The translations under genes were made by a program, and so were the position numbers. A model generated the notes under the pieces. That model was given only the letters and a program-made list of their open reading frames with translations. It was not told where the DNA came from and searched no databases. From UHGV virus genome UHGV-0228105: a stretch of 6,965 nt of DNA, one strand, 5' to 3'. Position 1 is the stretch's first letter, and each line of letters opens with the position of its first letter. Shown here one piece after another: positions 2,475 to 6,965 of this stretch. Source of the DNA: a virus.

Positions 2475-2750
2475 TTAGCTGTCCTGGTAATTGCGCCATA
2501 TTTCATCGCTTACACCATCTATACCCATTTCAGCATAAGTGCGATCTACTGCCTTTCTCAGGTCACCGAAGTTATCCGGCGGCTCCGGTGGCCTCTGTGC
2601 CTTCCTGGAACATTCCAGCCGTCGCATCGTAACCTGATGCCGTTCCTTGTCTGTCTCCACCAGCAGCATGACTTCACCCCATCGCGCCGCCGCCCTCCGG
2701 TAAAAGCCTTTCGCCTCGAGTTCCTCCGCTATGCGGTCATGTACCATCAC
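2475..2750 (-). CDS. Small protein (91 aa), tentatively PerC/Pch-family transcriptional activator-like
   Basis: ORF-track ORF; overlaps the upstream ORF by 14 nt and is followed by a terminator. N-terminal segment DRIAEELEAKGFYRRAAARWGEVML matches my recollection of the PerC-family signature (acidic helix then RRAA-RW). This is recalled, not searched. Confidence 0.5.
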   Translation of the reverse strand: MMVHDRIAEELEAKGFYRRAAARWGEVMLLVETDKERHQVTMRRLECSRKAQRPPEPPDNFGDLRKAVDRTYAEMGIDGVSDEIWRNYQDS

Positions 2751-3021
2751 CTGACTCTCCGGTTTTTACGTTGATGGTTGTTACCTGTTCCGCTTCGGCA
2801 ATCTCCCGTTCTGTCATCGTGGCAAAGTTTGCCGACGCCGTGGTCATGAATGCGCTTATCAGTTCGGGATGTTCCTTCGCGTATCCTTCCCCGGCGTGGC
2901 GGTCTATCGTTCTGATTGCCACCTTTAATGCGTGCTCTGTCATGTCTAACGCGCGATATTTCGGTTCTGTTCTGTCTCTGCATTTTTTGAGTGATTTGTT
3001 AAATTTCCCTGAAGTGTGCAT
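2737..3021 (-). CDS. Hypothetical protein (94 aa)
   Basis: ORF-track ORF with protein-like composition. Purine-rich GAGGGGG lies ~11 nt upstream of the ATG at 3021. Sits immediately downstream of the iteron region. A competing 78-aa arginine-rich ORF (2747..2983) in another frame is judged spurious. Confidence 0.5.
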   Translation of the reverse strand: MHTSGKFNKSLKKCRDRTEPKYRALDMTEHALKVAIRTIDRHAGEGYAKEHPELISAFMTTASANFATMTEREIAEAEQVTTINVKTGESGDGT

Positions 3022-3060
3022 TTTTATTTTTACCCCCTCGTTTAAAAAGTTTTGAGTTGT

Positions 3061-3300
3061 ACCTCTCCCCCTCTACCCCTTCTACCCAGCACCACCAAAA
3101 GCCAGCAATGGCGCACCTTTCAGCAGGGTAGAGGGCTTTTAATCCCCTTCTACCCGCCCTCTACCTGTCTACCTGGAATTGATAAAATCAGGTAGAAGAG
3201 GTAGAGGGCTTTTATTAGCCTTCGACCTGGCCCTCTACCCACCTATCATATTGAATAATATATATTTATTTACTTCAGGTAGAGGAGGTAGAGGGCTTTT
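3061..3300. repeat. Iteron array with AT-rich core: candidate origin of replication
   Basis: At least 11 copies of a 9-mer family in both orientations. GGTAGAGGGCTTTT occurs at 3127-3140, 3200-3213 and 3287-3300; degenerate copies GGTAGAAGA at 3191-3199 and GGTAGAGGA at 3278-3286. Inverse copies CCCTCTACC at 3069-3077, 3157-3165 and 3231-3239; CTTCTACCC at 3079-3087 and 3147-3155; TCTACC at 3168-3173. A 30-bp almost pure AT stretch lies at 3245-3275. The array ends 9 nt from the primase stop codon. Confidence 0.6.
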
Positions 3301-3308
3301 GCAAAAAA

Positions 3309-5057
3309 TTATAAAAACGCGTCACAATCGTCTGTTGTTATTGCGTTAGTCTGCGTTACTCCCTTAACTTTCCGAGTAATATATTCATGACCGTAAACTT
3401 TCGCAGCGGGTTTCATAGCTTTGCTGAACTCAGCCACGTTTAGCGGCTTGTTCCTTCCGGCGTATGCCATAAACGCCAGATAGACGCGGTAAAGGCTGTT
3501 TCTGGTCGTGTACCTGGAAGAGTCACCACCACCGCCCATCATCAGGCCGTGCGCTTCCTCCAGAAAATTAAGAAACTGGCAAAACTCAATAACCGGATCC
3601 GTTTGCTGCTTTATCGCCAGTGCTTCATCACCGTCACGCTGTTCCAGTAGTAAAGCCCGCGCCTTTTCAGGGTCGGCAAAGTTCGCCAGTAATCGGCGGA
3701 TAATGACGGGGATTTCAGCCGCGATTTTTTCCGGTAGCTCCCTGTCTTTTTCAGCCTCACTGACGATATTGTCGAAACGGAAAATCACGCGACGACGTGC
3801 CACGCCTCCGGCCCGTTCGGTGAATATCATCGGGTTGTTGTTGGTTGCCAGCACAACCGCCCTGATTACCGCTGTGAAACGCTTCTCATATTTCGGGTTA
3901 ATTTCCACGGGGTCACCGCCCGTGATTTTCTTGATGCCCGTGCCTTCGCCTGTATATTTCGGCTGGTCAGCCAGGACAATAAGCCGACTCCCGACAACCT
4001 GCGCACGCCCACCAGCATCATCAAGCGATGTCATCTCAGCACTTACCGTGTTCTGTTTCCCTGCCAGAAGGCTGGCTATATGCGTAAATGTACTCTTGCC
4101 GCTCCCGCCCTCTCCTGTGGCCTCAATAAACATCTGCCAGTCGTACCGGTTCGCCATAATCATGTACAGCGCGGCACATATACGCATCATCTTGCGCGGG
4201 TCTTTTCCGGCTGCGTGCTCAAGCCATTTATGAAAGTTTGGCGCGTTGTCGCGAATGTTCTCCCCTGGTGCTGGTGGCGTGTACTCAATGCCGTTGTGCG
4301 TGGTGATCCAGTTCTCCGGCGTGTGCGGGGAAAACTCCCCCGTTTTCAGGTCAAGCGCACCATTGGCGAACGGCAGCAAATCGCCGGACGGCTCGCCCAT
4401 TGGTTCGGCAATAACTTTTAACGCTTCCACGGCGTTATTGATTACGCGCTTGCTGAACGTGGCTTTATGTTCTGAATAAATCGCCACCATTTCGCGGCTC
4501 AGCTCCATTGTGCTGACCGGGCACCATACCCCGCCGCGCCAGATGTGGACGATTTCACTTTCCGGATCCACACAAACGCCATCAAATCGACCAGCAAGCA
4601 TCTGTGCGCGCTCACTGTCTGCCATTTGTGCCAGTTGCGTATTTTTCTGCTCCGGCATGGTAATCCCTGCGGCAATATTTTCACGCTCAGCATTCAGATA
4701 GCGCCGCCAGTTTTCACACTTCTGACCGTGCATTCCTTCTGGGTAAAAATTCGCATCCTGAATATCTGCCACCGCCAGCTTCTGACCAATCTTTTTGGTC
4801 TCCACTAAATCCAGTTCTCCGGCCTGGTACAGCCTTACGCGCTTTTTCCCATCCGGAACAATTTTCAGCGCATCAAGTTCGGCAAGCTGCTTTGGCCCAA
4901 GCCACACAGGCGGCACATTATCGCCGGATGCGGGGCCATCCTGTTCCTGCCATTGTTCCGCGTGTGACCAGGCATCACTACCCGCAAAGATAATTACCTC
5001 TGTGTCTTTGTGTTTTATTCCGCGTGGCTGTTTTTTTACGTTCGGTGCCAGTTTCAC
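3309..5057 (-). CDS. Primase-helicase / replication initiator of the D5 / P4-alpha (SF3 NTPase) family, 582 aa
   Basis: Long ORF-track ORF. Walker A GEGGSGKST followed by a hydrophobic stretch ending in acidic residue (RLIVLADQ), typical of phage/plasmid primase C-terminal NTPase domains. Start is GTG at 5057-5055 with AGGGG ~8 nt upstream, overlapping the upstream stop (GTGA). Stop TAA at 3311-3309. An N-terminal primase catalytic motif is not recognisable by eye. Confidence 0.88.
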   Translation of the reverse strand: MKLAPNVKKQPRGIKHKDTEVIIFAGSDAWSHAEQWQEQDGPASGDNVPPVWLGPKQLAELDALKIVPDGKKRVRLYQAGELDLVETKKIGQKLAVADIQDANFYPEGMHGQKCENWRRYLNAERENIAAGITMPEQKNTQLAQMADSERAQMLAGRFDGVCVDPESEIVHIWRGGVWCPVSTMELSREMVAIYSEHKATFSKRVINNAVEALKVIAEPMGEPSGDLLPFANGALDLKTGEFSPHTPENWITTHNGIEYTPPAPGENIRDNAPNFHKWLEHAAGKDPRKMMRICAALYMIMANRYDWQMFIEATGEGGSGKSTFTHIASLLAGKQNTVSAEMTSLDDAGGRAQVVGSRLIVLADQPKYTGEGTGIKKITGGDPVEINPKYEKRFTAVIRAVVLATNNNPMIFTERAGGVARRRVIFRFDNIVSEAEKDRELPEKIAAEIPVIIRRLLANFADPEKARALLLEQRDGDEALAIKQQTDPVIEFCQFLNFLEEAHGLMMGGGGDSSRYTTRNSLYRVYLAFMAYAGRNKPLNVAEFSKAMKPAAKVYGHEYITRKVKGVTQTNAITTDDCDAFL

Positions 5058-5353
5058 TTTTTGCCCCTGAATCCGTTAATCATGTTTTTCATCTTCTGAA
5101 TATTGGCGCGTGCTTTCTCCCCGCTGGTTGGCTTACTGCGGGGCGCTGCCTGTACCAGAGAAAAATCACGCCGGAACTGATAAACAGGCATCACGCAATC
5201 ATATTCGTAGCCTTCACGGCGGTAAGTGACGCGCCGATCCTCCACTCCCTTAATCATTACCGTGCCACCGTACTGGTCGCGGTAAATATCGCCGCGCGTA
5301 AATTTAGGGTGAGTGTTGCCACTGGCAGTTAAGCCAGAAATTTTCTTTTTCAT
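5054..5353 (-). CDS. Hypothetical small basic protein (99 aa)
   Basis: ORF-track ORF. ATG at 5353-5351 lies 5 nt after the stop of the upstream ORF; its own stop overlaps the primase GTG start. Sequence MKKKISGLTASGNTHPKFTRGDIYRDQYGGTVMIKGVEDRRVTYRREGYEYDCVMPVYQF... has no family I can name. Confidence 0.55.
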   Translation of the reverse strand: MKKKISGLTASGNTHPKFTRGDIYRDQYGGTVMIKGVEDRRVTYRREGYEYDCVMPVYQFRRDFSLVQAAPRSKPTSGEKARANIQKMKNMINGFRGKK

Positions 5354-5815: not shown

Positions 5816-6038
5816 GGTGTACCCCTCCGCATTTTTTTTCGTTAGAAATAAGCGTTCTTCTTTCCTGTTCATCGCTCAGGAATACGCAGACCTCACCGCT
5901 AAGGCGTTTAAGTAAGCCGATGATTGCCCCTGATTCGCTGTCGGTCATCATGCCAGGGTAATCCTCTGCCAGTGCGCAAATAACTTCGATTTGGTGGGCG
6001 CGTTCTGCTGCCTGTTGTAGTGTGATTTCCTGGCTCAT
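5805..6038 (-). CDS. Hypothetical small protein (77 aa from the proposed start)
   Basis: ORF-track ORF 5805..6095. Start placed at the ATG at 6038-6036 (MSQEITLQQAAERAHQIEV...), preceded by AGGAGGT at about -8 and overlapping the upstream stop as ATGA. Confidence 0.55.
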   Translation of the reverse strand: MSQEITLQQAAERAHQIEVICALAEDYPGMMTDSESGAIIGLLKRLSGEVCVFLSDEQERRTLISNEKKCGGVHHVQ

Positions 6039-6229
6039 AAGCCTACCTCCTGACGAATACGGGCGGCAAATACAGCAACACAACCGGACGGGCAACGGTT
6101 ACGCGCTTCGCGTTCCGTCCAGGCGGTTACGTGGATGATTTGAGATTCTCCGGCACTCAGGGCCAGAAAACGCCACACAAAGGCCGTTTGTGTGTGTGCT
6201 AGTCGTGGAGTATGATTTACGGCAACCAT
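6035..6229 (-). CDS. Hypothetical small protein (64 aa), first gene of the minus-strand operon
   Basis: ORF-track ORF. GAGAGGT Shine-Dalgarno ~9 nt upstream of the ATG at 6229. Contains a Cys pair (RNRCPSGC). Lies ~95 nt downstream of the predicted promoter. Confidence 0.5.
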   Translation of the reverse strand: MVAVNHTPRLAHTQTAFVWRFLALSAGESQIIHVTAWTEREARNRCPSGCVAVFAARIRQEVGL

Positions 6230-6308
6230 AAATTTACCTCTCTATAGTGTTTGTGGTTAGAGGCCCTGCTAGTGGTAGCGACACTTGCGGGGCTTTGCAT
6301 TTATGAAC

Positions 6309-6361
6309 CCTGAGCAGCTCAGGTGTGGCCCACTATATGTTTTAGGTGTGGCCCACGTCAA
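6309..6361 (-). promoter_or_regulatory. Control region: predicted sigma70-like promoter for the minus-strand operon, overlapped by a perfect palindrome and two 13-bp direct repeats
   Basis: On the minus strand: -35 TTGACG (plus 6356-6361), 18-nt spacer, -10 TATAGT (plus 6332-6337). Direct repeats AGGTGTGGCCCAC at 6321-6333 and 6344-6356, each containing GTGG-N-CCAC, with 23 bp between starts. Perfect palindrome CCTGAGC-A-GCTCAGG at 6309-6323, at or just downstream of the predicted start site. Confidence 0.45.
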
Positions 6362-6422
6362 GGGTTTTATTTGCGCTTTTTCTGTGTATACTGTCCCCCA
6401 CCAATCAACAGGAGAAACAGCA

Positions 6423-6602
6423 ATGGCAACGGGTACAACAAACGCAAAATCACAAGCTTTAAAGGCTCGTGTACCGCATGAAATAGTTGACGCAATGGAA
6501 TCAGTGAAAGACTCAGGCGAAAGCACATCACAATTTATCATTACGTCAATGCAAGGCGAGATCAAACGCCGCCAGCGCCGCAAGGCCAAAGAAGCGGAAT
6601 AA
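6423..6602 (+). CDS. Small ribbon-helix-helix (CopG/Arc-like) DNA-binding protein, 59 aa; candidate repressor
   Basis: ATG at 6423 preceded by AGGAGA (6410-6415, 7-nt spacer). Sequence MATGTTNAKSQALKARVPHEIVDAMESVKDSGESTSQFIITSMQGEIKRRQRRKAKEAE fits strand (LKARVP), helix (HEIVDAMESVKDSG), helix (STSQFIITSMQGEI). It is the only plus-strand gene, divergent from the operon and convergent with alpA. The overlapping 153-aa minus ORF (6269..6730) is judged spurious. Confidence 0.55.
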   Translation: MATGTTNAKSQALKARVPHEIVDAMESVKDSGESTSQFIITSMQGEIKRRQRRKAKEAE

Positions 6603-6690
6603 TCCACCAGCAAACCACCACACTGATCACATTGCCCACCAGCCAGCAAATCGCTATGATGTTCGGGCTTATGTTTAGTGTTTTCCCATT

Positions 6691-6721
6691 GGCGACCTCT
6701 GATCCGGGTCGCCTTTGTTTT
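6691..6721 (+). terminator. Rho-independent terminator downstream of the RHH gene
   Basis: GGCGACC (6691-6697) / GGTCGCC (6707-6713) form a 7-bp perfect stem with a 9-nt loop, followed by TTTGTTTT (6714-6721). No U-tract on the minus-strand side, so it is unidirectional. Confidence 0.5.
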
Positions 6722-6740
6722 ATGTGTCATATGCTCCCCT

Positions 6741-6965
6741 TTACGCTGCCTTACCTGAATTAATGCGATCCCGGCTTTTAACCCATTCCATAACCTCGGA
6801 CAGCAGCCAACCTACAGAACGACCGCCCAGATTAAGGCGTGACGGAAATCGCCCTTTTTTCTCCAGTTCGTAGCGTGTAGTACGGCACACTCCAGTTAAC
6901 TTACGACATTCATCCTCACGGATTACGCGATCTGATAGTGATTGAAATTGTGTATTTTGATTCAT
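6741..6965 (-). CDS. alpA: AlpA-family (MerR-type HTH, excisionase-like) transcriptional regulator
   Basis: Translation contains the AlpA-type core CRKLTGVCRTTRYELEKKGRFPSRLNLGGRSVGWLLSEVMEWVKSR (compare the recalled pattern L-x-R-S-T-I-Y-x-L-x-x-G-x-FP-x-P-x-x-LGGR-x-V-GW-x-x-SE-V-x-x-W). The ATG falls exactly at the window edge (6965-6963), so the true N-terminus could lie outside the window. Confidence 0.85.
   Translation of the reverse strand: MNQNTQFQSLSDRVIREDECRKLTGVCRTTRYELEKKGRFPSRLNLGGRSVGWLLSEVMEWVKSRDRINSGKAA

Follow-up and report, generated by a model that had tools for sequence, protein, structure and literature searches.

A 12-iteron array directly downstream of rep is the probable replication origin of a capsid-forming PICI of Escherichia coli

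The 6,965-bp stretch of DNA analyzed here (the window; UHGV virus genome UHGV-0228105) carries, directly downstream of the gene for a 582-residue Rep protein, an array of 12 short iterons that is very probably the replication origin (ori) of a capsid-forming E. coli PICI. An initial annotation, made from the letters of the window, had proposed an origin bound by the adjacent initiator. Our sequence comparisons support that proposal through the position of the array in the rep-proximal gap, the inverted iteron pairs around the least stable spacer, an SF3 helicase with a P4-alpha-type domain, and homology to the rep-ori segment of EcCICFT073. The kind of origin and its family are already known, the layout and function of an E. 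coli PICI origin having been published in 2018. Here, we describe the anatomy of the array and its statistics, its conservation, its co-variation with Rep, and its homology to the EcCICFT073 origin.

RESULTS

Gene context of the array

The genes around the array all lie on the minus strand, in the order AlpA, Icd-like, DUF4222, Rep, a 94-residue ORF, PerC, and a ClpP-capsid fusion (Table 1). Because this gene order, from AlpA to the ClpP-capsid fusion, is that of Gram-negative PICIs, the window is identified as part of a capsid-forming PICI of E. coli. DNA related to the window is present in about 1,700 complete E. coli genomes, in chromosomal islands beside an integrase; these relatives carry the integrase and chromosomal flanks, and one E. 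coli protein on record is 100% identical to the 582-residue product. Neither a terminator nor a minus-strand promoter was predicted in the gap between rep and the next gene, and no DnaA box or IHF consensus was found in 3022-3308. No RNA family reached its Rfam gathering score in the array region (27 against 46.5 bits), and in the eight E. coli relatives inspected, RefSeq annotates no gene in the interval from rep to the following gene. In most relatives (among loci L001, L005, L006, L008, L009, and L094), an SSB gene comes right after the small post-origin ORF. In the window, PerC directly follows that ORF, so the DNA beyond the origin has a mosaic makeup.

Table 1. Coordinates of the features described in this study (window positions unless residues are given)
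Feature	Position	Strand	Basis or remark
AlpA-family regulator	6741-6965	-	
Icd-like protein	6035-6229	-	
DUF4222 protein	5054-5353	-	
rep, 582-aa initiator-helicase	3309-5057	-	
D5_N domain of Rep	residues 151-280		
DUF5906, SF3 ATPase of Rep	residues 314-415		Walker A GGSGKST
Pox_D5 origin-binding winged-helix domain of Rep, predicted	residues 485-573; 3339-3605	-	match to 1KA8
Whole iteron array, 12 sites	3069-3295		9-mer search, PWM
Iterons 11 and 12, rep-proximal pair beside AT-rich spacer	3278-3295	+	
Iteron 12, GGTAGAGGG	3287-3295	+	9-mer search, PWM
Iteron 11, GGTAGAGGA	3278-3286	+	9-mer search, PWM
AT-rich spacer, 37 bp, 84% A+T, proposed DNA unwinding element	3241-3277		stability, composition
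Iterons 9 and 10, opposed pair across AT-rich spacer	3219-3239	-	
Iteron 10, GGTAGAGGG	3231-3239	-	9-mer search, PWM
Iteron 9, GGTCGAAGG, degenerate	3219-3227	-	PWM
Iterons 7 and 8, set	3191-3208	+	
Iteron 8, GGTAGAGGG	3200-3208	+	9-mer search, PWM
Iteron 7, GGTAGAAGA	3191-3199	+	9-mer search, PWM
Second, shorter AT-rich spacer, 17 bp, 76% A+T	3174-3190		
Iterons 4 to 6, set	3146-3173	-	
Iteron 6, GGTAGACAG	3165-3173	-	9-mer search, PWM
Iteron 5, GGTAGAGGG	3157-3165	-	9-mer search, PWM
Iteron 4, GGTAGAAGG	3146-3154	-	9-mer search, PWM
Iteron 3, GGTAGAGGG, single site	3127-3135	+	9-mer search, PWM
Conserved non-iteron block, third spacer, CTGAAAG..GCGCCATTRCTGGC in rep direction	3101-3124		conservation
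Iterons 1 and 2, distal pair adjoining the following gene	3069-3086	-	
Iteron 2, GGTAGAAGG	3078-3086	-	9-mer search, PWM
Iteron 1, GGTAGAGGG	3069-3077	-	9-mer search, PWM
Ribosome-binding site GAGGGGG of the 94-aa ORF	3031-3037	-	
94-aa ORF, phrog_1231, next gene of the operon and distal origin boundary	2737-3021	-	homologues annotated at the same position
PerC	2475-2750	-	
ClpP-protease/major-capsid fusion	runs off the left end of the window	-	

Twelve iterons lie in the gap downstream of rep

A search with the 9-mer GGTAGAGGG, together with a PWM scan of the window, identified 12 iterons of 9 bp each, seven on the minus strand and five on the plus strand, all of them inside 3069-3295. They share the core GGTAGA/TCTACC, and six match GGTAGAGGG exactly. 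The array takes up 227 of the 287 bp that separate the rep stop codon from the next gene. When up to two mismatches to GGTAGAGGG were allowed, 20 matches were found window-wide, 13 of which fall between 3061 and 3295. The PWM was made from the core-containing sites, and its 12-nt scoring frame puts the 12 sites within 3068-3296. Their scores range from 13 to 19.8 bits, and the best site outside the array reaches 10.1 bits, less than shuffled windows reach on average with their top site (12.3 bits). The degenerate GGTCGAAGG scores 13.0 bits even though it was left out when the PWM was built. The GGTAGA/TCTACC hexamer occurs 12 times in the 6,965 bp, and 11 of these occurrences are clustered within 3072-3292, against an expectation of about 0.12 per 240 bp (Poisson P of about 1e-18).

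These counts bear out the at least 11 copies of the 9-mer in both orientations that the initial annotation had listed, as well as its three extended 14-mers (GGTAGAGGGCTTTT, starting at 3127, 3200, and 3287). The cluster also lies within 3061-3300 as proposed, but the string at 3061-3069 (GGGAGAGGT), which would be a thirteenth iteron, was rejected because the PWM gives it just 4 to 6 bits. Similarly, the array does adjoin the rep stop, but 8 nt, not 9, separate the last 14-mer from the stop codon (3309-3311). Neighboring iteron cores are spaced 8 to 12 bp apart and, read in the direction of rep, the array consists of three units, each made of a leftward set, a spacer, and a rightward set.

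The spacer nearest to rep is the least stable DNA of the window

Among all 35-mers of the 6,965 bp, the least stable is 3244-3278, with -32.8 kcal/mol compared to a mean of -48.3 (standard deviation, 3.9), i.e., about 4 standard deviations below the window mean. It coincides with the first AT-rich spacer, which two iteron pairs of opposite orientation (3219-3239 on the minus strand and 3278-3295 on the plus strand) bracket. The description of 3245-3275 as pure AT was not accurate, as 28 of its 31 positions are A or T and the longest uninterrupted run is 19 nt (3254-3272).

Rep is an initiator-helicase with a P4-alpha-type C-terminal domain

The helicase core of Rep matches the self-loading helicase PriRep5 of SaPI5 (7OLA, cryo-electron microscopy; E = 1.4e-14), and a match to the origin-binding winged helix of P4 alpha covers the C-terminal ~90 residues (1KA8; E = 9e-6 with the full protein and 9e-7 with the domain alone). 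Based on this match, the C-terminal domain of Rep is homologous to the origin-binding domain of P4 alpha. The corresponding Pox_D5 region includes residues 541-544 (AEFS) and the wing segment KGVTQTN. An AF2 model of the origin-binding domain had a pLDDT of 45.6 and was unusable for mapping either of these elements.

The gene had been labeled a primase-helicase, and the first half of that name could not be upheld. No primase family matched Rep, whose N-terminal 150 residues gave only a modest match to a small TOPRIM-like fold over about 110 residues. The name traces to TIGR01613, which covers residues 227-493, i.e., the helicase part. Long P4-type primase profiles align with Rep only from about residue 133 on, and when profiles of Rep and of the primase half of P4 alpha were compared, no match was obtained (probability, 0.6%). 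The 582-residue protein can thus safely be called an initiator-helicase, but the primase label is not supported.

The origin is conserved in related islands

From E. coli and Shigella genomes and IMG/VR contigs, 88 related loci were collected, corresponding to 70 distinct origin sequences; a contig scan contributed 3 loci, and protein searches with domain fragments gave few matches, mostly fragments. Across the 70 origins, mean column entropy is 0.28 bit in the iteron cores and 0.75 bit at the remaining array positions (Mann-Whitney P = 4e-10), and the rep-proximal pair, iterons 11 and 12, is kept in all 70. The first spacer is AT-rich throughout (66 to 87% A+T; mean, 77%) compared to the whole origin (58%) in 69 distinct origins, and its sequence varies, with 34 different spacers among those 69. 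The non-iteron block at 3101-3124 is conserved about as well as the iteron cores in the 70 origins, in both of the allele groups described below. In vB_KppS-Ant, the single iteron is likewise followed by a CTGAAA motif, which is also seen in both repeats of P4 crr.

The array is an allele of the tested EcCICFT073 origin

The E. coli PICI EcCICFT073 was located from the coordinates in Table S1 of PMC6092414 (locus L094). Its Rep is 89% identical to that of the window over the full length, and its 288-bp rep-proximal gap aligns with the 287 bp of the window and contains 11 GGTAGA iterons whose order and orientation are those of the window. Like the window origin, that of EcCICFT073 lies directly 3′ of rep, and the two share the AT-rich spacer, the non-iteron block, and the ribosome-binding region. 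Given the identity of the Reps and the alignment of the origins, the window array is an allele of this previously tested origin. The two differ in the flank next to the core (CYTCTACC in the window and TRTCTACC in EcCICFT073), in Rep residues 541-544 (AEFS and NDFG, respectively), and in the downstream module, which is capsid forming, with the ClpP-capsid fusion, in the window and cos-type in EcCICFT073.

The EcCICFT073 rep-ori segment maintains a temperature-sensitive plasmid at 44°C; loss of rep leaves no colonies, and deletion of ori leaves significantly fewer, though not zero (Fillol-Salom et al. 2018, ISME J, PMC6092414). Gram-negative PICIs are transcribed in one direction (PMC6092414). 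Every feature of a Gram-negative PICI origin that can be checked in the sequence is found in the window: the array begins 8 nt past the rep stop, fills the gap to the next gene, and belongs to the same operon, and the genes run in one direction from alpA through rep and ori to the downstream genes. A single GGTAGA cluster was found in the complete 11.4-kb EcCICFT073 island and, likewise, one in 22 kb around another relative. A literature search found the iteron sequence itself in the text of no relevant paper, and PMC6092414 gives sequences only in a figure.

Iterons co-vary with the C-terminal domain of Rep

The related origins fall into two allele groups. Group A, to which the window and an O157:H7 island (L007) belong, combines CYTCTACC iterons with AEFS at residues 541-544; group B, with CFT073 and Shigella, combines TRTCTACC iterons with NDFG. 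The AEFS/NDFG tetrapeptide (3432-3443 in the window) and the iteron flank are concordant in 79 of 80 distinct segments, the exception being a natural recombinant (L054) that has AEFS with B-type iterons. However, the nearly fixed differences between the groups form one linkage block that begins 127 nt ahead of the stop codon and runs on across the origin. Because of this single block and the recombinant, the A/B association alone proves nothing, and we rejected AEFS/NDFG as a proven specificity switch, the association being confounded by physical linkage and broken in L054. One IMG genome (2703718778) carries two islands of this Rep family, L019 and L083, whose iterons belong to group A in one island and to group B in the other; the case is a single one and is compatible with the idea that different alleles can coexist.

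Co-variation is also seen between more distant loci, as a C-terminal domain that reads the iterons would lead one to expect, and it is stronger there than the A/B allele association. The same architecture is combined with TGTTCAC(C/T) iterons in relatives from Serratia and Morganella and in the Klebsiella/Escherichia satellite vB_KppS-Ant, and such iterons accompany P4-like C-terminal domains in L003, L004, and L012/L095; the domain of L003 matches 1KA8 with E = 3e-24, compared to 9e-7 for the window. One contig (IMGVR_UViG_3300011357_000012; L111) encodes a helicase body 95% identical to that of the Ant-like Rep of L095, whose iterons are TGTTCACC. Over the last 115 residues, however, its identity to L095 is only 68%, with the wing insertion GPDKGR, and its iterons are GTGTCTAC. 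For another protein with this wing type (P0148; contig L175, Logan SRR33398659), TCTAC iterons were predicted beforehand, and 11 were found; for P0141, no contig location was found. Judging from these comparisons, the L111/L175 type is a natural swap of the binding domain together with its iterons. In 12 loci, Reps with the wing motif G-x-T-x-[ST]-N are paired with TCTAC cores, and those with G-[ILVW]-[RQ]-x-N are paired with TTCAC or TTCAT cores.

The operon leader carries a different repeat

Two degenerate iteron-like strings in the operon leader had been taken as a possible basis for autoregulation by the initiator. The strings exist, but one base to the right of where they had been placed, and as iterons they were rejected: one scores 7.25 bits, which puts it at rank 19 in the window and under the 8.6 bits that shuffles average for their fifth-best site, and the other scores -3.8 bits. 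As both are at chance level by PWM and the leader has a different repeat, the proposed autoregulation through these strings is not sustained. The repeat is a 13-nt perfect direct repeat, AGGTGTGGCCCAC, at 6321-6333 and 6344-6356, 23 nt apart; it overlaps the -35 and -10/+1 regions of a sigma-70-like promoter on the minus strand (6361-6332; TTGACG-18-TATAGT, 10 of 12 matches). It is unrelated to the iterons and is probably the operator of an island regulator (AlpA or a repressor). Further upstream, a short plus-strand gene (6423-6602) opposes the operon; it has no Pfam match, and its positional homologues are annotated as the YlcI/YnfO family. A terminator-like hairpin follows on the plus strand (6691-6713), about 90 nt downstream of this gene. 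The 153-residue minus-strand ORF listed at 6269-6730 is probably spurious.

DISCUSSION

A model for initiation at the array

On induction, the operon, with its AlpA-type activator (6741-6965) and its promoter (6361-6332), would be switched on and the 582-residue Rep made. The C-terminal winged helix of Rep would then bind the 8- to 9-bp iterons CYTCTACC (equivalent to GGTAGARG). The opposed pairs 3219-3239 and 3278-3295 would bracket the unwinding element, and the sets 3191-3208, 3146-3173, 3127-3135, and 3069-3086 would add binding sites. Several Rep protomers may assemble there and melt the spacer 3241-3277, after which Rep would load itself as an SF3 hexameric helicase, probably with one ring per side, and a host polymerase would copy the excised island for packaging. 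A mechanism of this kind has been shown for SaPI Reps (PMC9371898). For the island itself, we infer Rep binding at these sites, melting at 3241-3277, the loading of a double hexamer, the stoichiometry, and the maker of the primer.

Comparison with other origins

The proposed origin shares its layout with those of SaPIs, which have 6 to 12 short iterons directly after rep, an AT-rich center, and at least two opposed iterons per side (PMC9371898). In Staphylococcus aureus, the SaPI initiator Rep/PriRep is also a self-loading helicase with a C-terminal winged helix (PMC9371898). The likeness is one of architecture only, i.e., position after rep, an AT-rich center, and at least two opposed iterons on each side. 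The origin DNA has no sequence similarity, the iterons are 8 to 9 bp in the window and 5 to 6 bp in SaPIs, and the SaPI operon organization is unlike the one-direction transcription of Gram-negative PICIs.

The likeness to P4 extends to sequence. In P4 (NC_001609.1; L011), crr (4291-4590) lies directly 3′ of alpha (4636-6969), in the position of the PICI origin, and has iterons in both orientations, whereas ori is at 9086-9809. P4 alpha binds its iterons in both ori and crr. The SF3 helicase is homologous (40% identity over residues 133-571), as is the origin-binding domain (1KA8), and the P4 type 1 repeat, TGTTCACC, recurs unchanged in intermediate relatives, within a PICI architecture. On the other hand, the window iteron shares only 4 of 8 bases with that repeat, and no TTCAC was found in the window array, which thus lacks the type 1 repeat. 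The 120-bp duplicated units of P4 and a terminator between rep and the array are also absent from the window, and Rep is without the ~330-residue primase part of alpha. In P4, ori and crr are about 4.5 kb apart, in contrast to the single cluster of the window and of the complete EcCICFT073 island. Together with the position of crr, the graded series of octamers, from TGTTCACC in P4 through TRTCTACC in CFT073 to CYTCTACC in the window, suggests a shared ancestry of the replication modules of P4 and PICIs.

The iterons of theta plasmids such as pSC101, RK2, R6K, and P1 are 17- to 22-bp direct repeats in one orientation, usually accompanied by DnaA boxes and read by a non-helicase initiator. As in these plasmids, repeated initiator sites adjoin an AT-rich unwinding element in the window, but the sites are 8 to 9 bp long and occur in both orientations, with no DnaA or IHF consensus and with an SF3 helicase as the initiator.

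Alternative roles of the array

The position of crr in P4, where the region directly 3′ of alpha is not ori, raises the question of whether the array could be a P4-crr-like cis replication enhancer, a second Rep-binding region with initiation elsewhere in the island, outside the window. The same iterons occur in both orientations in crr, and the C-terminal domain of Rep is homologous to that of alpha. We nevertheless consider this role very unlikely, as only one GGTAGA cluster is present in the complete 11.4-kb EcCICFT073 island and in the 22 kb around a relative, the EcCICFT073 rep-ori fragment alone sustained replication (PMC6092414), and the least stable, AT-rich element lies inside the array itself. 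The same element and the published replication experiment, both of which an origin explains, also weigh against a mainly regulatory function. In that scenario, the array would act as a Rep-dependent operator or roadblock for read-through into PerC and the capsid genes, or in copy control by "handcuffing"; in plasmids, copy control is among the functions of iteron arrays. As the array lies inside the operon, with neither a terminator nor a minus-strand promoter predicted in the rep-proximal gap, bound Rep would meet transcribing RNA polymerase. Regulation as the main role has no support, and we regard it as highly improbable, but Rep-dependent regulation could coexist with origin function.

Since capsid-forming PICIs package their own DNA and the array is near the morphogenesis genes, we also considered a packaging (pac) site for the island's own small terminase. 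This assignment is extremely improbable, as the same array is found in EcCICFT073, a PICI that is of the cos type and packages its DNA differently, and in islands with quite different downstream modules, and the iterons co-vary with the C-terminal domain of Rep, not with packaging genes. Finally, a repeat of chance origin or low complexity, a gene for a small protein, and a structured RNA are readings of the array with next to no probability. On the plus strand, the ORFs 3052-3195 and 3179-3349 do overlap the array, but they give low-complexity peptides, the stop-free stretches vary from 27 to 58 residues among homologues, and RefSeq has no gene there in the eight E. coli relatives. The Rfam matches are weak, microRNA-like ones that arise from the inverted repeats and stay well short of the gathering score (27 versus 46.5 bits), and the hexamer clustering (P of about 1e-18) speaks against chance.

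Implications for satellite replication

Placing the island origin precisely, with 12 iterons and one unwinding element, helps PICI annotation and the design of Rep-dependent vectors. As to how such islands replicate, it leaves understanding unchanged, layout and function having been published in 2018. The allele pairs, the joint swaps of domain and iterons, and the continuity with P4 crr go somewhat beyond the literature, as comparative inferences from sequence. A small set of residues may set iteron specificity. More broadly, but tentatively and at somewhat less than an even chance, the C-terminal domain of Rep and the iterons could form matched, swappable specificity pairs within one family that leads from P4 crr (TGTTCACC) to TRTCTACC and CYTCTACC; in such a family, the wing position (Thr or hydrophobic) would track TCTAC or TTCAC cores, and residues 541-544 would track the flank alleles. 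If this is true, islands in one cell could replicate without cross-talk, and the replication modules of P4 and PICIs would share ancestry, with the PICI ori corresponding to P4 crr. The allele pairs, with a change of 3 to 4 residues in Rep, the swaps, and the link to P4 crr may bear on the replicon specificity and compatibility of co-resident satellites.
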